This document shows positions 16,506 through 23,833 of a stretch of 64,000 bases of DNA, one piece after another. Source of the stretch: a virus (lineage: Duplodnaviria > Caudoviricetes); IMG/VR virus record IMGVR_UViG_3300044833_000060, positions 918 to 64,917 of that record; one strand, 5' to 3'. The notes under the pieces are model-generated. The model was not told where the DNA came from. It did no database searches and saw only the letters and a program-made list of their open reading frames with translations. Every line of letters starts with the position of its first letter. The first letter of the stretch is position 1. Both the position numbers and the translations under genes were made by a program.

Positions 16506-17060
16506 ATGAGAACCTACCGCCAGGCATCCGGGATTTTACAAGATTCCATAGGCAAGACCATCGGCGTTGGTTACTCAGGCCAGCCGCCTCACACCAACAA
16601 TCCTGCAGACGAGGGATTAGATGGCTTAGGGCCAATTCCTTGCGGCATCTGGAAAATGACATCTTTGGAATTGACGACTGAGAAACACGGCCCGGATGTA
16701 ATCGTGCTTGTGCCTGACTTTGTAACCCGCATAAGAATTATCGCTTCTGGCCGCGATCCGGATTCTTTTCGAATGCATGGCGAGCGCACAAAGCCGCCGG
16801 CCGGATTTGCCTCGGATGGCTGCATCATCATGCCGCGGCAAGTTCGAATGGAATGCTGGAACTCAAATGACCATGATTTGCAGGTAATACACCAACAGCC
16901 CCAACTGCCAGTTAATTTCGACTGGCCCACGCCGCCCGTTGATCAATGCGGGGTCGGGGCTGCACTGATCAATTTGTGGCAAGCTCAAATTGAATGGATT
17001 GGCAAAGTGGGGATCGGTCCGGTGCCCAACGTGCCTAAGCCGCCTACTGAAGAAGAATAG
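16506..17060 (+). CDS. Tlde1/DUF2778 L,D-transpeptidase-fold peptidoglycan enzyme (candidate endolysin)
   Basis: GYSG....NNP......GPIPCGIW...FRMHGE......ASDGCII. Confidence 0.8.
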   Translation: MRTYRQASGILQDSIGKTIGVGYSGQPPHTNNPADEGLDGLGPIPCGIWKMTSLELTTEKHGPDVIVLVPDFVTRIRIIASGRDPDSFRMHGERTKPPAGFASDGCIIMPRQVRMECWNSNDHDLQVIHQQPQLPVNFDWPTPPVDQCGVGAALINLWQAQIEWIGKVGIGPVPNVPKPPTEEE

Positions 17061-17075
17061 CAGTCTGGGGAGCAA

Positions 17076-17639
17076 GTGAGTTCGCCACTAAGCAGGAAAC
17101 AAAAACGCGCTCGATTTGTTGCGGAGTACCTAGTCGATGGAAACGCTACAAGAGCCGCGCAGGCAGCAGGTTACAGCAAAAAGACCGCTTACTCGGCTGG
17201 TGGCCGCCTGTTGAAAGATGTTGAAATTAAGCAATTACTTGTTGAAAAGAATGCTGCAATTAACAAGAAATTAGAAGTTTCTGTTGAGAGAGTTCGCGAT
17301 GAGTTAGCGCGGCTTGCCTTCTTTGACCCTCGCAAGTTCTTCAAAGAGGACGGTTCGCTTGTGCCAATCACGGAACTCGATTCCGATACTGCAATGTGCT
17401 TGGCGGGCATGGAAGTCAATGAATTGTATGAGGGGCGCGGCGAAGACAGAGAACTAATCGGCTATGCGAAGAAATTCAAACTAGCCGACAAGGGACAAAA
17501 TCTTGAGCGCCTCGGGCGATACCTGAAGATGTTTACGGATCGCGTGGAGGTTGTACCTGACGCCGACTCTACAGAGCGTCTTGCAAGCCTACTCACCCGA
17601 GCGGCTGGCAGGGCTAGTCAAGCATCTTCACCCCGATGA
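17076..17639 (+). CDS. terS: Terminase small subunit
   Basis: RFVAEYLVDGNATRAAQAAGYSKKTAYSAGGRLLK...LARLAFFDPRKFF...KFKLADK..NLERLGRYLKMF. Confidence 0.93.
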   Translation: MSSPLSRKQKRARFVAEYLVDGNATRAAQAAGYSKKTAYSAGGRLLKDVEIKQLLVEKNAAINKKLEVSVERVRDELARLAFFDPRKFFKEDGSLVPITELDSDTAMCLAGMEVNELYEGRGEDRELIGYAKKFKLADKGQNLERLGRYLKMFTDRVEVVPDADSTERLASLLTRAAGRASQASSPR

Positions 17640-18294
17640 ACAGCGTGAACTGGCGGACATTCTTGAGCAGGAAGAAAACCGCACGGTTTGGGATGACATT
17701 GGAATCAGGGAAGCATCTTGGGAACGCGGTCCATTACTGTGGCTGACACAGCATACCAAAACCGAAGATACCCACTGGATGGATACGGGAACGGAATTCC
17801 GCGTGCCGTTTCCCCGGAAGTCTTATTTGCGGGTAGTCATGCAGTATCTGTTGAGCGACAAAGTTGTCTTCCTGCAGAAGTCGCGCGAGATGCTCATGAG
17901 TTGGCTGGTATGCGGATTTATTACATGGGAATGTCAATGGTATCCGGTCTTCTGGCTGGCGCAAACCGGCAAAGAGGACAAGGTCGCGGAGTTGATTCAA
18001 TATGCCCGGACTTTATATCAGAACCAGCCGGAATGGATGCGCAAGCGGAATCCGTTAGTTGTAGACAACGAATTGGAATTAACTTGGCGCGCCGGCGGAC
18101 GTTTTCTGGGAGTGCCGAAGGGAATGGATCAGGCAAGAATTCACCATCCCAAAGGCTACTTCCAGGACGAATCGGCGTTTCTGCCGGAAGCTCAGCAAGC
18201 CTTTGACGCTGTACGGCCAGTCTGCCGGCAAGTGGTATGTGTGAGTACGGATGAGATTGGATGGTTTCACAATGAATGCAAATTGGAGGGTTAA
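17551..18294 (+). CDS. terL: Terminase large subunit, N-terminal ATPase domain only (split gene, part 1)
   Basis: PFP adenine-binding-like region, LQKSREMLMSW (Walker A-like), YFQDESAF (Walker B), VCVST (motif III), then stop. Confidence 0.8.
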   Translation: MYLTPTLQSVLQAYSPERLAGLVKHLHPDEQRELADILEQEENRTVWDDIGIREASWERGPLLWLTQHTKTEDTHWMDTGTEFRVPFPRKSYLRVVMQYLLSDKVVFLQKSREMLMSWLVCGFITWECQWYPVFWLAQTGKEDKVAELIQYARTLYQNQPEWMRKRNPLVVDNELELTWRAGGRFLGVPKGMDQARIHHPKGYFQDESAFLPEAQQAFDAVRPVCRQVVCVSTDEIGWFHNECKLEG

Positions 18295-18295
18295 G

Positions 18296-18898
18296 ATGCG
18301 AAGCAATCGACTGATTGGTTTTACGATAGCGCTGCTTGTATTTTCCGGCGTGGCGGCTTTGGCGCAGTGGGGCGCGGGCGGAGTTTGGACCGTCCCGTCT
18401 GGCGGACTCTATTTGAACTGTCCAGCAAATTCTTGCTCGGTCACAGGGCAGACATTGAACTTTCCCGGACTCAGCGCCAAAAGCCAACTGCTGGCGGATT
18501 CGGCTGGTTCTGCTACGACGGCGCTTGTGAATAGCGGCATTTCCTTCCCGCTAGCGGCTGGCGAAACAGGCACTCTCGATTGCGAGGTCTTATTCACCAA
18601 CGGCAGCGGTGGTGGTTTGACTTTGGCCATCAATGGTCCAGGAACGCCGACTCAGGTCAGTATTCATGGTTCGATTGTGTCGGCGGTCACGACTACAAAC
18701 CAATACTACTCACAAGGCGCGACCTGGGCCGTGGCTCTCGGTGCTGCCACGAGTACGGTAACCACAATTCAATCCGCTAGGATTACGGCGGGTATTGAGA
18801 ACGGCACTACGGCAGGAACGCTGGCTCTCCAGTTTTCCGATGTCAATACGACCGGATCAACGGTGATCAAGCGCGACTCTTGGTGCTCGTTCCCGTAG
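18296..18898 (+). CDS. Exported beta-rich protein with fibre-tip-like C-terminal domain
   Basis: Signal peptide MRSNRLIGFTIALLVFSGVAALA|Q; GISFPLAAG...GTLALQF...TVIKRDSW. Confidence 0.6.
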   Translation: MRSNRLIGFTIALLVFSGVAALAQWGAGGVWTVPSGGLYLNCPANSCSVTGQTLNFPGLSAKSQLLADSAGSATTALVNSGISFPLAAGETGTLDCEVLFTNGSGGGLTLAINGPGTPTQVSIHGSIVSAVTTTNQYYSQGATWAVALGAATSTVTTIQSARITAGIENGTTAGTLALQFSDVNTTGSTVIKRDSWCSFP

Positions 18899-18916
18899 AA
18901 AGGAACTGTTTTATAT

Positions 18917-19105
18917 ATGAAGGCAAAGATAAAGACAACACAGTACACAGGTTTCTCTATTGGCGACACTGTCCGCCTAAATAGTGGAAGTCCGACTCTC
19001 ACTGTCGTGGCTATCCATGACGGTGATCTGTCAGTCGGCTGGATCGATGTTAATGGGCTTCAGCGCCTAAGTTTGCCTGCTGCTTGCTTTAATAAGATTC
19101 TGTGA
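18917..19105 (+). CDS. YodC/DUF2158-like small protein
   Basis: FSIGDTVRLNSGSPTLTV....W. Confidence 0.7.
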   Translation: MKAKIKTTQYTGFSIGDTVRLNSGSPTLTVVAIHDGDLSVGWIDVNGLQRLSLPAACFNKIL

Positions 19106-19608
19106 TTGACCGCTGCCTCTTCACGCCGAACGGCGACAATCCTCCCTCTCCAGTTCCCTTGGATGATCTTTGCACTGTTCCAACAGAGGAAATGGCGCAC
19201 CTGTTAGCCGATCTAATCACGGCCAATATGCCATTGGATGTTCTGGAGATCGGGACAGGCTCTGGCTATCAAGCGGCGATTCTCGCGCAGCGCTGCAGAA
19301 GTCTTGTGTCCGTGGACGTAAAACTCCAACCTGGCGTAGCGGAGAAACTCCCAAGCAATGTGGCCATCGTGATTGCGGACGGCTACGAGTTCGACAGTGG
19401 CGAGCAATTCGACGCGGTGCTAGTGACGTTCGCCGCCAGCCGCTTGGCATCATCGTGGGTCCAGCAAACGAAGATTGGCGGCCGATTAGTAGTCCCCATG
19501 CAAATGGCTACAGGCTGTCGCATCTCAGTCTACGAGCGAACGGAAGTAGGCGTGAACCTGCTTGACGTGGCGGCCTATGCACCATTTACGCCGGGAGCGG
19601 AAGCGTGA
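19102..19608 (+). CDS. Protein-L-isoaspartate O-methyltransferase (PCMT)-like SAM methyltransferase
   Basis: VLEIGTGSGYQAAILAQ...DG....FDAVLVT.AA......QTKIGGRLVVP...FTP. Confidence 0.8.
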   Translation: MIDRCLFTPNGDNPPSPVPLDDLCTVPTEEMAHLLADLITANMPLDVLEIGTGSGYQAAILAQRCRSLVSVDVKLQPGVAEKLPSNVAIVIADGYEFDSGEQFDAVLVTFAASRLASSWVQQTKIGGRLVVPMQMATGCRISVYERTEVGVNLLDVAAYAPFTPGAEA

Positions 19609-20183
19609 GTTTCTCGCATCCGGCGCAACGCTCTCATAAGTTTGCAGGTATGGCCGCGGCGGCAAATTCACCCAACACTCCCGCACATCTTCGAGCACAT
19701 CTTCATAAGCGAGTCAAGGAGGCAGGTATGGCAGGACGCGTGGACAACCTTCGCAGACCATCAGGCAAGGTTCCAGTACAAACGACTCTAAAAACTACTG
19801 ACGCGGCTGATGAATCTTTGCAGACGGCAACCGATCCTTCCCCGTTTCGGGACACCAATAACTCGACCGCAATGCCGCGCATGGGAACTACCACGAAACA
19901 GCCCTCGCCTGCCGGCACCAGGCCGATGAGCGTTAGCGCCACAGTGAAGACTCCCAAAGCGCCAGGACTCGTGACGTCGCAGGGAGCGGTGCGCAATAGC
20001 CGCCCCGCCGCCAAAGGATTGAATCAGAGCCTGAACGTGGATCGTCGGCAGCCGCGCGCATCCGGTCTGAATGTCACGGTAAGTCCAGTGCTCAAGACTC
20101 ATAAAATGACCGCCGTTCCAGCGCAGTCGAATCGCAATGTGCGCAAAGGCAGCGCGAACCCAGCCTTCTACGGCGATTTCTAA
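19605..20183 (+). CDS. Basic low-complexity protein
   Basis: K/R/S/T/P-rich; 4-bp overlap with the previous gene; ends FYGDF. Confidence 0.5.
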   Translation: MSFSHPAQRSHKFAGMAAAANSPNTPAHLRAHLHKRVKEAGMAGRVDNLRRPSGKVPVQTTLKTTDAADESLQTATDPSPFRDTNNSTAMPRMGTTTKQPSPAGTRPMSVSATVKTPKAPGLVTSQGAVRNSRPAAKGLNQSLNVDRRQPRASGLNVTVSPVLKTHKMTAVPAQSNRNVRKGSANPAFYGDF

Positions 20184-20189
20184 CGTCTG

Positions 20190-20531
20190 ATGTTGTACCT
20201 GATTGCAGTCCTATTACTCGCATCTCTCTATCTCATCCTTAAGGGGAAATTCAATATGCAGGCAAAGTTCACTATCACATTTACGGATTCCGCTGCGCCT
20301 CCGCCTCCCATTCAGCTTGCAACCACGAGCTTCAATGGTGTGGTCGGGGTTCCGGAAAGCGGCAGCCTCGGGCCGAGCGGCGGCAATGGCGGACCATTCG
20401 TTGTCACGGTTGATCCGACTACCCCACTTCCGGATGGAGTGACGATTGACGCACAAGGGACTGTCGCGGGAACTCCAACGGTTGCCGGCAGCACTTCAGT
20501 GAATGTCATAGTGGCCGATTCGCAAGGCTAA
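20190..20531 (+). CDS. Ig-like (He_PIG-type) domain protein
   Basis: SGGNGGPF...PLPDGVTI...GTVAGTPTVAGS..VNVIVADS; hydrophobic N-terminus or alternative start at MQAKF. Confidence 0.65.
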   Translation: MLYLIAVLLLASLYLILKGKFNMQAKFTITFTDSAAPPPPIQLATTSFNGVVGVPESGSLGPSGGNGGPFVVTVDPTTPLPDGVTIDAQGTVAGTPTVAGSTSVNVIVADSQG

Positions 20532-21601
20532 TGTCTAGCAGTCCAATCACCGCTTGCGTTCCGACCTTCCCTCATCCGGGGATTCGTGTGCATACCAACC
20601 GGCACGGCAATACCGTGTTGCGGCTGCATTACGAAGCGGATGAGGACAAGGGACGCGGGGACAAACTATTAGTTCCTGAAATCAATCGTATGTTGTCGCC
20701 GTGGGCCTTTGGGCAGTTCGGGCAAATGACTGACCCTAACGCTTACCTTCGGGAATACGAGATTGAGGCTGAAGCCGCGCTTGGTCGCCTAATCTTCAAT
20801 TTAGACGAAGAGGCCACCTGCGAAGAATCTTTCCCGATTCCTCCAAAATGGACGCGGCGCATGGCGCTCGATCCCCATCCGAGCGTTCCCCACGCAATGC
20901 TATGGGCGGCAACCGACCCGTGGGGAGACCGATGGTATTACCGGGAACTATGGCCATCGCGCGCGTGTTATCGCTATGACGGAGGCCGTCTCTATGGAAT
21001 CCCCGGCGCCTGTCCTGACGATGAAGCGGTAATGCGCATCAAGGATTATGTCGAAACCATTCAATGGCTCGAATCGGCGAAGAACCCACAGAACGTGGAC
21101 AATACTGTGCCATTCGATGAAAAGATTTCTGCGCGCGTCATTGATTATGCGGCGAGAGCTTTCGGACAAGGCACCAACGACGACCCCGACCAGCCCAATT
21201 TTCAACGCAGATTTGAGCAGTACATGTGCTCCCCGGAATTGCGCGTATCCTGTCCGGTATTTCAGGACGCAAAAAAGGATCATGATGTGGGCTTTGAGAT
21301 GGTCAATGCTGGGCTCAAGGCACGAGAAGTACAAGGGCCTAGGGATACGAAGATCAGGCGCAGCCGCATTCATATCTTTCGCGATCAGTGCCCAGAACTG
21401 ATCTTCCAATTGAAAAACAACCGTCGCCAGCAATTGTCTCCAGCGCAAATGCTAACCAAAGATCCAACTGGTAAGCCAGTCGATGTGCGTCGGCACATGA
21501 CAGACAACCTTCGCTATTTGGAAATGGCAAACCCGGTCTACTTAAATCCCTCGGCCCCGAAGAGTACCTGGAAACCTTTGGCGGATGGAATCGCTTATTA
21601 A
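20531..21601 (+). CDS. terL: Terminase large subunit, C-terminal RNase H-like nuclease domain (split gene, part 2)
   Basis: VLRLHYEAD...LREYEIE...RRMALDPHP..PHAMLW...WYYRE...RVIDYAA...IHIFRDQC..LI..L...HMTDNLRYL; immediately upstream of the portal. Confidence 0.8.
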   Translation: MSSSPITACVPTFPHPGIRVHTNRHGNTVLRLHYEADEDKGRGDKLLVPEINRMLSPWAFGQFGQMTDPNAYLREYEIEAEAALGRLIFNLDEEATCEESFPIPPKWTRRMALDPHPSVPHAMLWAATDPWGDRWYYRELWPSRACYRYDGGRLYGIPGACPDDEAVMRIKDYVETIQWLESAKNPQNVDNTVPFDEKISARVIDYAARAFGQGTNDDPDQPNFQRRFEQYMCSPELRVSCPVFQDAKKDHDVGFEMVNAGLKAREVQGPRDTKIRRSRIHIFRDQCPELIFQLKNNRRQQLSPAQMLTKDPTGKPVDVRRHMTDNLRYLEMANPVYLNPSAPKSTWKPLADGIAY

Positions 21602-23833
21602 ATGCCTGAAGTAACCGATCAACAGTCAGCCTCGCGCGGGTCTGAGACTGGCGTGGTCTCTGACATCATCATGCGCCGCGATGAGTCCAAGAAATGGCTG
21701 CGTCTCAACTACTGGGATGAGTGGATTGACACCTGGCGGATGATTAAGTGCCGCACCAAACCTATTCATAAAGTCGATTCCGCCGGCAAGGACACCAATG
21801 AAGAGGATAAATCCCGCACGAATGTGGAAAGCGGTCTGGCGAACCTGATCTTCCGCAAGAACGTCGCGCGATTATCAGCTCAGCCATACACCCTGCGCGT
21901 GCGCGGCGGCAGTGATCCCACACGGGCAGCGCGCCTGAGTTCCTTACTAGGTCAGCAATACGACCAATCCCAAGAGCGCGCGGAAGATGTTCGGGTGCGC
22001 ATGGCCTCGGAATCGTTAGGTATCGGGATTTCCAAACTCTACTGGGACTTTGTTTCCCGAACGATGGTTTTTCGCAAGGCCGTCTTACATAACGGGAAAG
22101 TCGTATTTCGCGACCGTTCACAGTTCATGAAGTCTGCGGGCGCGAACGATACCGAGACCCAGCAGGCGGTCAAAGAATTAGGCCCCGATATGTCGGATGA
22201 TGAAGTCCAGGACTTCATGGGGAAAAGTGGGACAGAAATTACAGTTCCGCAGTCGGTCGAGAAGTATGAAGGCCCACGGGTTAAGGCCTGCTTCCCTGGG
22301 GATGTGTATTGGGAGCCGTTTGCGAGAACCTTACGCCAATCCAGCTTCGTTATTGAAGCCTACCGCGAAACCGATCTCTGGTTAAAGAAGATGCTGGGCT
22401 TGAAATATAAAGATCCGGAAACCGGGCAAATGCTGAAGGCGTTTGATGCCGAGGCCGTGGCTGGCCTCATGCGTCTCGACCCCGAGCCAGTTGTGATGAA
22501 AGGCGAATTCCAGGAGCTTAAGGATTTGTTCCGCACGGCGATTGGCAAGCAGGATCAGGTGCAATACCAATTCCCCCGCAACCTGCGCGTGCGCAAACTC
22601 TACGACATTTTAGAAGAGCACAAGCAGGATGACGAAGGTCGCATGTGGATTACATGGGTATCGGAAAACTACCGAGACAGGGTTCTGGGAAAGATGCCGT
22701 ATCCATTCGAGTTTTACGGAGACACGGCGTTTACCGACGAAGTACCGCTGCCTGACCTGAACGATGCAATTGGGGATTCGACACCGCGCCTTCTGCGATT
22801 CATGTTTCAGTTGTTCAATCTTCAGCACTGCCAGAACTTTGATTACATCACGCAACTAATTCGCAGGCATTTCTTCGCTCCCGCCGGCATGGAGTTCTCC
22901 GAAGAGACGATCGAGCGCGGGAATATGAGAATCACTCGCGTAGCCAATGGGCGTCCGGGTGACCTTCAGCCGGATCAGACTCCTCCGATTCCCGAGGGCG
23001 CGATGGAGCGAGGGGCTGCTCTCATGCAACTGATTGGCATGTTTGAGCCGTCCTTGAACACCACGACGGACGGAACGTCGTTCAATCCTCAAGCCTCAAA
23101 AACCGCAACCACTGCGGTATTGCAGGCGAAGGCCGCTGACGTATTACTGGCATTCAAGATTGATGGCCGTGATCTGTATCTCTATCAATTAGGCATGAAG
23201 AAAATCTGGATGAACCAGCAAATGGCCGATATGGATCGAGACTGGGAAATTCAATCGAAATATTTCGGCCCACAATTAAACGACGCACTAAAAGGACAAC
23301 CGCAAGGAGAGGAAAAGCCGCAGTGGATCACTACCGATCAGTCCGGTAAAATCGCCTCGGTGAAGTTAAGTCCTACGGAAATTCAGGAAGATTTTGAATG
23401 TGAACCCGAGTCCGGTTCCTACATGGCTGTCGATGATGACCTGCGCCGCCAGGCAGCGGTTGAATTGGATCAGGTAGCAATGCAATCCGGCGGGTTGCTC
23501 GATATGGCGAAGGTTCTGACCAATCATCTGAAAACGATAAAGGGCATAGATGATCCGGAATCGTTCTTCGCGCCGCCGAAGCCTCCAAGTCCGCCGCCGC
23601 CTAAAATTAACGTCTCGCTGACCGGAAAACTTGAAGACATGCCGGAAGTCACTGCTGTCCTTCTTCAGGAGATGGGAATTGTGCCCCCTCCTGCTCTCGC
23701 GCAAGAGTCGCAGTTAAATACGCTTGGCCGAGTCAGTCAAGCTGCCGACCATGCCTCGAATCTTTTAAGTCCCGCCGATCCGCACGCGGAAGGCGGACCC
23801 TTAGGAACGGCTGAAAGTGAAGTAGGTGCTTAG
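21602..23833 (+). CDS. Portal protein (P22-like size)
   Basis: 743 aa; between terminase and scaffold; GIGISKLYW, PGDVYWEP, KTATTA motifs. Confidence 0.8.
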   Translation: MPEVTDQQSASRGSETGVVSDIIMRRDESKKWLRLNYWDEWIDTWRMIKCRTKPIHKVDSAGKDTNEEDKSRTNVESGLANLIFRKNVARLSAQPYTLRVRGGSDPTRAARLSSLLGQQYDQSQERAEDVRVRMASESLGIGISKLYWDFVSRTMVFRKAVLHNGKVVFRDRSQFMKSAGANDTETQQAVKELGPDMSDDEVQDFMGKSGTEITVPQSVEKYEGPRVKACFPGDVYWEPFARTLRQSSFVIEAYRETDLWLKKMLGLKYKDPETGQMLKAFDAEAVAGLMRLDPEPVVMKGEFQELKDLFRTAIGKQDQVQYQFPRNLRVRKLYDILEEHKQDDEGRMWITWVSENYRDRVLGKMPYPFEFYGDTAFTDEVPLPDLNDAIGDSTPRLLRFMFQLFNLQHCQNFDYITQLIRRHFFAPAGMEFSEETIERGNMRITRVANGRPGDLQPDQTPPIPEGAMERGAALMQLIGMFEPSLNTTTDGTSFNPQASKTATTAVLQAKAADVLLAFKIDGRDLYLYQLGMKKIWMNQQMADMDRDWEIQSKYFGPQLNDALKGQPQGEEKPQWITTDQSGKIASVKLSPTEIQEDFECEPESGSYMAVDDDLRRQAAVELDQVAMQSGGLLDMAKVLTNHLKTIKGIDDPESFFAPPKPPSPPPPKINVSLTGKLEDMPEVTAVLLQEMGIVPPPALAQESQLNTLGRVSQAADHASNLLSPADPHAEGGPLGTAESEVGA

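Follow-up and report, generated by a model that had tools for sequence, protein, structure and literature searches.

In the complete genome of a soil virus assigned to the Caudoviricetes (Duplodnaviria; IMG/VR record IMGVR_UViG_3300044833_000060), the large terminase subunit TerL appears to be encoded by two separate genes, here called TerL-N and TerL-C. The window analysed comprises 64,000 nucleotides, positions 918 to 64,917 of that record, and coordinates refer to it unless another locus is named. Both genes lie on the plus strand between terS and the portal gene, and the gap of 2.2 kb between them is filled by five co-oriented open reading frames (ORFs), g1 to g5. A first-pass annotation, made from the letters alone, had drawn attention to these two ORFs as the halves of a naturally split terminase; the ORFs, their motifs and the five gap genes were confirmed, positions included, from the ORF list with its translations. 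The locus is composed as follows.

17076..17639, plus strand: terS, small terminase gene (Pfam Terminase_2, 1.2e-30; phrog_51, 1.2e-29)
17551..18294, plus strand: TerL-N, 247 aa, TTG start, predicted terminase-type ATPase core
18285..18298, plus strand: junction 1, with GGAGGG (18285-18290), the TAA of TerL-N (18292-18294) and the ATG of g1 (18296-18298), read from the sequence
18296..18898, plus strand: cargo gene g1, 200 aa, N-terminal signal-peptide-like segment, no family match
18917..19105, plus strand: cargo gene g2, 62 aa, DUF2158-like (Pfam DUF2158, 8e-4, below cut-off; phrog_3261, 2e-6)
19102..19608, plus strand: cargo gene g3, PCMT-like S-adenosylmethionine-dependent methyltransferase (Pfam PCMT, 4e-16)
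19605..20183, plus strand: cargo gene g4, basic Pro/Thr-rich disordered protein, no family match
20190..20531, plus strand: cargo gene g5, 113 aa, hydrophobic N-terminus, weak Ig-like match
20529..20533, plus strand: junction 2, TAATG, in which the g5 stop overlaps the TerL-C start, read from the sequence
20531..20782, plus strand: TerL-C residues 1-84, variable head, conserved strand T28-L32 followed by HYxAD, lid-like helical segment
20783..21601, plus strand: TerL-C residues 85-356, predicted RNase H-like terminase nuclease with invariant D114, D205 and D325
21602..23833, plus strand: portal gene, directly after TerL-C (weak matches to SU10_portal, 8e-5, and phrog_1216, 2e-5)

The 3' end of terS overlaps the TerL-N gene by 89 nt, and the whole TerL-C ORF (20531-21601) codes for 356 aa. 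For g1 the ATG at 18296, behind the GGAGGG at 18285-18290, is a more likely start than 18251. Only 1, 18 and 6 nt of the gap are non-coding. The TAATG at junction 2 reads as translational coupling of g5 and TerL-C, and both junctions look like those of ordinary coupled cistrons.

Neither half is assigned to a terminase family by Pfam, and an NCBIfam search of the ORFs returned no terminase match. Because sequence models barely see the two ORFs, alignments were built from related loci, A1 from 15 N-type and A2 from 19 C-type proteins. TerL-N contains the motifs KSREMLMSW (residues 110-118), YFQDESAF (203-210) and VCVST (229-233, motif III), and its stop follows 14 residues past T233. Compared with the sequences of the PDB, profile A1 found T4 gp17 at E 0.0078, placing S-R-E-M-x-x-S on S-R-Q-L-G-K-T and D-E-S-A-F on D-E-C-A-F of gp17. 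The AlphaFold2 model of TerL-N (predicted local distance difference test, pLDDT, 81.5) matches the same protein, both in Foldseek (2e-8, template modelling (TM) score 0.60) and in VIA (Z 19.7, root-mean-square deviation (rmsd) 2.9, 195 residues aligned), with residues 38-247 of the model corresponding to 101-305 of gp17. Next best in VIA are the TerL proteins of T7, PhiV-1, HK97 and P74-26 with Z 14.8-17.4, and helicases reach 12.5 at most. As modelled, TerL-N has an additional strand catalytic E (ASCE) fold which is closest to the solved TerL ATPase domains. Nine residues are invariant in all 15 sequences of A1 (K110, R112, E113, M114, S117, W118, D206, E207 and S232), and the alignment places a Walker B (D206-E207) and a motif III (S232) in TerL-N. 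The Lys of its putative P-loop precedes the conserved Ser by seven residues, which we take, as a lead, to resemble the deviant P-loop of lambda gpA. Throughout the whole family, fused members included, K-S-R-E-M-x-x-S-W replaces the GK[ST] P-loop. The nearly invariant R196, ten residues before Walker B, presumably occupies the place of the trans-acting arginine finger of P74-26 TerL.

TerL-C carries the motifs RLHYEAD, LREYEIE, ALDPH and HMTDNLRY. Profile A2 gave nothing meaningful against the PDB sequences, and the model of TerL-C alone has a pLDDT of 69.5. In VIA, its residues 84-340 match the TerL nucleases of D6E (Z 16.7, rmsd 4.2, 177 residues aligned), P22 (4dkw, Z 14.8), HK97 (13.2), SPP1 (12.8), T4/RB49 (12.4) and G20c (12.3) as well as herpes simplex virus pUL15 (4iox, 11.1), and RuvC-type resolvases stay at Z 8.2 or below. 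Foldseek matches to TerL nucleases range from 5e-5 to 1e-3. The modelled fold of TerL-C is most similar to solved TerL nucleases. D114, D205 and D325 are invariant in all 19 sequences of A2; the first nuclease strand (DSSP 108-114) ends with D114, and D205 and D325 are probable catalytic positions. Together with the A1 match to gp17, the Foldseek and VIA results for both chains bear out the view that the two ORFs are terminase halves.

The break does not coincide with the boundary between the two classical domains. According to VIA, the TerL-N model ends at the equivalents of about residue 305 in gp17, 197 in P74-26, 190 in D6E and 206 in HK97. The ATPase domain extends to about residue 360 in gp17 and about 256 in P74-26. 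The nuclease fold starts only at about residue 84-88 of TerL-C. Since TerL-N ends before the ATPase domain does and the nuclease starts at about residue 84, the approximately 84 head residues of TerL-C would belong to the ATPase domain. In the models, the break thus falls within the ATPase domain, some 14 residues past motif III, and the two genes are better described as coding for an 'ATPase core' and for a 'last ATPase strand, lid-like segment and nuclease' than for an 'ATPase' and a 'nuclease'. TerL-N does not hold a complete ATPase domain (core and lid) on its one chain; such a domain is predicted only for TerL-N and TerL-C together. The earlier division into an ATPase gene and a separate nuclease gene is not supported by VIA and the complex model, in which the TerL-C head carries the end of the ATPase domain.

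A model of the complex of both chains, calculated with A1 and A2 as input alignments, gave an ipSAE of 0.84, with 0.01 for the best of three controls. Of 80 solved complexes 58 attain the mark for this score, as do 2 of 110 mismatched pairs, counts which hold only roughly for a model made from own alignments. At least 94% of contacts are shared between the runs, with a partner pLDDT of at least 75. On TerL-C the predicted interface is formed by residues 9-40 and 62-84, and the lowest-error contacts join residues 106-111 of TerL-N with 28-33 of TerL-C in parallel register. The TerL-C strand T-V-L-R-L (28-32) comes to lie beside the Walker-A strand (105-109) of TerL-N. The strand order of ASCE ATPases is 5-1-4-3-2, and in this order the TerL-C strand takes, as modelled, the place of strand 5. 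The two chains can, in this model, be threaded as one TerL.

Relatives in which both parts are present on one chain agree with this arrangement. The proteins P0001 (540 aa) and P0002 (775 aa) match TerL-N with 38% and 36% identity and then TerL-C with 32% and 33% over about 330 residues; they are colinear with N plus C. In P0001, the loop that leads from the conserved W-F after motif III to the strand preceding H-Y has roughly the combined length of the N tail and the C head, which indicates that nothing was lost or added at the break. In P0002 a single open frame codes for a terS domain (PF03592) in front, followed by the ATPase and nuclease parts. At one end of the family there would then be a chain that unites all three, at the other a separate terS with two TerL chains, although a sequencing frameshift in P0002 is possible.

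The record is a complete virus genome of 64,917 bp with direct terminal repeats, and each half occurs in one copy. No other terminase was detected in it by searches with phrog_2, PF03354 and PF03237, a six-frame scan with hidden Markov models (HMMs) of A1 and A2 found only the two halves, and none of ten other large ORFs matches a terminase PHROG. An intact terL elsewhere in the complete genome, which the annotation had named as a refuting condition, was found in none of these searches. Among the IMG/VR genomes, 25 loci (numbered with the prefix L) encode relatives of the C half with 46-85% identity. The C half is fused to an N half in none of the 25, and in all of them its frame is closed by a stop within about 120 nt or less upstream of the start. 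Both halves are found on the same strand in 18 of the 25 loci, with differing cargo between them, the gaps measuring 1193-5553 bp and having 15 different lengths; several of these 18 are near-duplicates, and the number of independent genomes is smaller. In the other seven contigs the upstream sequence is too short, or 0.2-4.1 kb of it are free of an N half. Its recurrence among related loci indicates that the two-ORF layout is more than chance. Against five relatives, dN amounts to 0.11-0.31 and synonymous sites are saturated for both halves; because of this saturation no dN/dS ratio is given. All named relatives are labelled 'hypothetical protein'.

The same layout is also found outside viral records. 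Locus L031 (CAVQVP010000002.1, 567765-584832) is part of a 934-kb contig of a metagenome-assembled genome (MAG) of an uncultured member of the Acidobacteriota and has the order N - g1 - g3 - g4 - C - portal with 70-82% identity. A fragment of a Terriglobales MAG (L030) carries C and the portal gene. Owing to the related prophage copy L031 in an Acidobacteriota MAG, the phage is probably a temperate phage of Acidobacteriota. A check for misassembly was favourable: one Logan contig of 9861 nt covers 17400-21800 with no differences and no joints, though it may derive from the source sample, and the junction of g5 and TerL-C is bridged by a 151-nt contig (20409-20559) from a second study. The runs X2 to X4 yielded short contigs over parts of the stretch only. 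Six soil-metagenome runs are listed for the stretch, no RNA run among them.

To survey the wider family, 1.84 billion representatives were searched with profile A2, giving 607 proteins at E<=1e-3; the 12 best matches have 322-351 aa and all begin with the head of the C half. Of these proteins 176 were classed with the A1 and A2 HMMs: 50 are complete stand-alone C halves that start with M and have no N-type region (split), 24 hold A1 and then A2 on one chain (fused), 93 are fragments and nine fall into none of these classes. A quick IQ-TREE tree was calculated from 55 rows (the window, 33 split and 21 fused), leaving out fragments, six of the unclassed rows and 24 extra cluster members. In this unrooted tree, the window belongs to a clade of nine split rows with a support of 99 in the Shimodaira-Hasegawa-like approximate likelihood ratio test (SH-aLRT). 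Split and fused rows are interspersed and demand 12 parsimony changes, at least eight of them forced by well-supported branches, with the state of most rows, P0001 and P0002 included, taken from gene calls; three of 500 label shuffles were as low as 12 changes. Genomic context was checked for three split lineages (the window clade, L032 and the lineage of P0102) and for one fused locus, L033, whose protein has 550 aa. No viral locus was found for P0055. In the P0102 lineage the halves are adjacent in 8 of 11 loci, five of these showing an ATGA, GTGA or TAATG overlap of stop and start with GGAG upstream; of the remainder, two contigs hold C only and one has no HMM match, and none is fused. With phrog_2, fused members give matches of 1e-12 to 3e-28, and one of them also matches Pfam Terminase_6C (1e-8); for this reason the family is best placed among the T4/P22-type terminases, as a divergent branch. 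With the tree unrooted, the series of fused, adjacent-split and cargo-split forms may suggest that fission came first and cargo later.

The contents of the gap change from relative to relative while the junction is retained. ORF clustering yielded 58 clusters, few of which are shared, and the width of the gap varies from 0 to 5.6 kb. It contains a NAD-dependent sugar epimerase in L003, and in L032, a separate lineage whose C half is 86% identical to P0023, 3.8 kb with a DUF6625 gene, an RmlD-like enzyme and a GT2 glycosyltransferase. This supports a reading of the gap as a changeable cargo site. Relatives of g1, which has no match in Pfam, PHROGs or NCBIfam, are confined to L001 and L031. Those of g3 occur in the gap of 8 of the 25 loci and in L031. 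The best NCBIfam match of g3 (NF001453, 68 bits versus a cut-off of 188) is far below the equivalog cut-offs, and the next best after the PCMT models are peptide-maturation methyltransferases of FxLD and ATP-grasp systems. The weak match of g5 is to Pfam Ig_SIBA-E_2nd (0.014, below cut-off).

The sole gap gene kept across the clade is g4, with relatives in the gap of 22 of 25 loci (tblastn; for example L007 5237-5830 and L011 7023-7640). It is missing in L025 and in two loci with almost no upstream sequence. The first approximately 40 aa and an aromatic C-terminus are conserved, and the middle part varies, with P-P-R/K-K-T-x-V-G repeats in some relatives. No family match was obtained in Pfam, PHROGs or NCBIfam, the Atlas model is disordered (pLDDT 0.30) and the Atlas search gave no usable relatives. 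It may be tied to packaging instead of being cargo. In the window g3 overlaps the start of g4, and it also stands directly before g4 in L001, L007 and L031. Judged from its family matches, g3 might modify a protein such as g4.

Further variation exists around the operon. The portal gene adjoins the TerL-C side in all related loci which extend far enough; the spacer between the two, 0 nt in the window, reaches 0.3-0.8 kb in relatives (L030 888-1709; L009 4773-5314; L002 1308-1590; L031 9068-9344), a hint that the packaging operon has a second site of insertion. In two relatives tRNA genes are located downstream of the portal region (L007 11823-11896 and L025 6048-6109, with 68 and 44 bits in Rfam). 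A terminator-like hairpin with a T-run is found at 18889-18906, between g1 and g2; the scan for promoters and terminators as a whole gave results not above those of shuffled sequences.

We favour, with a probability of roughly 80%, that TerL is made as two polypeptides from two cistrons of the late operon, which assemble into the equivalent of one TerL protomer. TerL-N (28 kDa) would provide strands 1-4 of the ASCE ATPase core with the deviant P-loop, Walker B and motif III, and TerL-C (40 kDa) the next parallel strand, beside the Walker-A strand, together with the lid-like helical segment and the RNase H-like nuclease. By strand complementation the two would form a heterodimer corresponding to one canonical TerL protomer, and such protomers could build the packaging ring on the portal. 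The place of the fission would be a variable loop that follows motif III at a distance of about 14 residues. With two cistrons present, their junction could have served as a tolerated landing site for accessory genes, which would be expressed with the late genes. Of the earlier proposal of a two-chain motor with an insertion hotspot at its domain boundary, the two genes and the changeable cargo site stand, but the boundary has to be given up, the break lying within the ATPase domain in the models. Several observations weigh against this reading. Sequence-only matches of the two window ORFs to PHROGs are weak (phrog_5989 0.035, phrog_2 0.004), the classical GxxxxGK[ST] P-loop is absent and only the deviant K-S-R-E-x-x-x-S is present, and residues 1-84 of TerL-C reach a pLDDT of only 39-76 when modelled alone. 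The score of the complex may reflect a memory of the fold, because one-chain TerL structures are solved, and would then indicate likeness and not binding. No cultured relative was found by tblastn of the C half against 50,697 GenBank phage records, and the case against splicing consists solely in the fact that known elements and non-coding room are absent.

The main remaining rival, which we regard as unlikely, is independent action: a stand-alone packaging ATPase, as in phi29, and a free nuclease, without a stable heterodimer. Indeed the N-domain of phi29 gp16, a packaging ATPase chain without nuclease, is among the Foldseek matches of TerL-N (5hd9, 6e-5), and with halves up to 5.6 kb apart the gene order does not enforce a tight 1:1 coupling. 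However, phi29 has no terminase nuclease and the ATPase domain of gp16 is complete, whereas here the nuclease chain carries the end of the ATPase domain. Because the domain is incomplete on TerL-N, which stops before its end, two separate actors are disfavoured. Furthermore, the strand and the HYxAD that come next in one-chain relatives sit on TerL-C, the complex model sets this strand by the Walker-A strand (0.84 versus 0.01 for the controls), and the stop/start overlap in relatives with adjacent genes suits equimolar synthesis. A small but appreciable chance is given to a bolder extension of the favoured explanation: the fission inside the ATPase core could be a selected and repeatedly evolved state instead of a neutral accident. 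With the Walker-A/B core and the lid-nuclease on separate chains, the phage could control motor assembly or turn the nuclease on and off by chain exchange, perhaps hiding a one-chain surface from bacterial Avs-type sensors, and would gain a highly expressed slot for swapped accessory genes in the late operon, with g4 as a third motor-associated component.

The halves might also be rejoined, at the level of RNA, protein or DNA. An intron (group I, group II or of an unknown kind), spliced to give one terL message, is very improbable here, although terL is known as an intron target: in Jug jumbo phages (PMC12880540) and Bastillevirinae (PMC11878797), ORF fragments of terL likewise have foreign genes between them, the gaps hold ribozyme cores and homing endonucleases, and RNA reads prove the rejoining by splicing; the introns of Bastillevirinae have a mean length of 802 nt. 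In the present gap, in contrast, Rfam yields no match at E<=1 in 17000-22000, a search that an undescribed ribozyme could escape, and across 11 related loci (146.8 kb) it finds no intron family and, at gathering score, only the two tRNAs. No homing endonuclease is detected by Pfam, PHROGs or NCBIfam. Five coupled, ordinary accessory ORFs leave only the 1, 18 and 6 nt mentioned above, the cargo differs among relatives while the junction is kept, relatives with zero gap exist, and in every locus N ends at a stop of its own and C begins at a separate, coupled start. A split intein, with ligation of the halves after translation, is still less probable. Its precedent is the 'fractured' terminase of Dassa et al. 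2009, for which PMC2677866 describes two separately translated halves with another gene, a free-standing endonuclease, between them, intein parts of 88-105 residues (N) and of 33-54 or 122 residues (C), and a protein presumed to be ligated. Here neither half has a Hint or intein match in Pfam, the end residues are not the conserved Cys/Ser or His-Asn, and the gap genes are a methyltransferase and unknowns instead of an endonuclease. The 14 residues after motif III in N and the approximately 27 before the conserved strand in C add up to the loop of a one-chain relative; as the N tail and C head equal the loop of P0001, there is no room for intein halves. The lack of an intein or intron-encoded nuclease noted in the first-pass annotation is upheld by the Rfam and Pfam searches. 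Equally slim are the odds of a broken terL in a decaying element or of an assembly artefact. The record is a metagenome assembly and no isolate, and the family matches of each half are weak, but the genome is complete with direct terminal repeats, other samples show the same layout, in 18 viral loci and in one MAG, catalytic residues are invariant with low dN at saturated dS, and the Logan contig spans the whole stretch without joints. Least probable of all is excision of the cargo from DNA during lytic growth, by which terL would be rejoined. This is suggested by analogy with developmentally excised elements alone, for a phage that is probably temperate (prophage L031). Pfam, PHROGs and NCBIfam detect no recombinase in the gap, a repeat search of the cargo boundaries found none in direct orientation at 18294/20531, the genome form with terminal repeats and the integrated copy both contain the cargo, and DNA contigs show no joints.

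Compared with the one-chain TerL proteins of T4 (gp17), D6E, P22, HK97, SPP1 and P74-26, the folds are the same and occur in the same order, with terS upstream and the portal gene downstream; the differences are the two cistrons 2.2 kb apart, the predicted break inside the ATPase domain and the lack of a GK[ST] P-loop. Herpesvirus pUL15, whose nuclease is a structural match of TerL-C as mentioned above (4iox, Z 11.1), has two exons, separated by an intron that contains other genes and joined into one chain by host mRNA splicing, a machinery which is not available in bacteria. Further reports treat TerL as universal in combining ATPase and nuclease (PMC7824862), describe a TerL with two inteins (PMC7156551), or deal with Avs2/Upx sensing (PMC13601566), a split DNA polymerase (PMC10580990) and a split RNA polymerase (10.1101/672428), and do not concern a two-gene terL. 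Three more candidates (PMC7911831, PMC5679792 and PMC6669507) were set aside as irrelevant to a two-gene terL. Among open-access papers and preprints, the published cases of terL in pieces which we found are either intron-split or split by an intein, and no description of a two-gene TerL with neither intron nor intein came up among them.

To our knowledge, a one-chain TerL counts as a hallmark shared by all tailed phages, and it serves as such in phylogeny, in virus detection and as the target of Avs sensors. Because the relatives are labelled as hypothetical and neither half reaches a Pfam terminase model, phages of this kind appear to be without TerL. A natural cut between strands 4 and 5 that is still conserved offers a system to ask which contacts between core and lid-nuclease carry force generation and nuclease control, and nature also provides fused, adjacent-split and cargo-split variants to compare. 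From the relatives in MAGs, Acidobacteriota is the likely host phylum of this phage clade, which is otherwise uncultured and without a GenBank phage relative, and the family would show how the fission of a gene can seed a hotspot for the insertion of accessory genes in a packaging operon.

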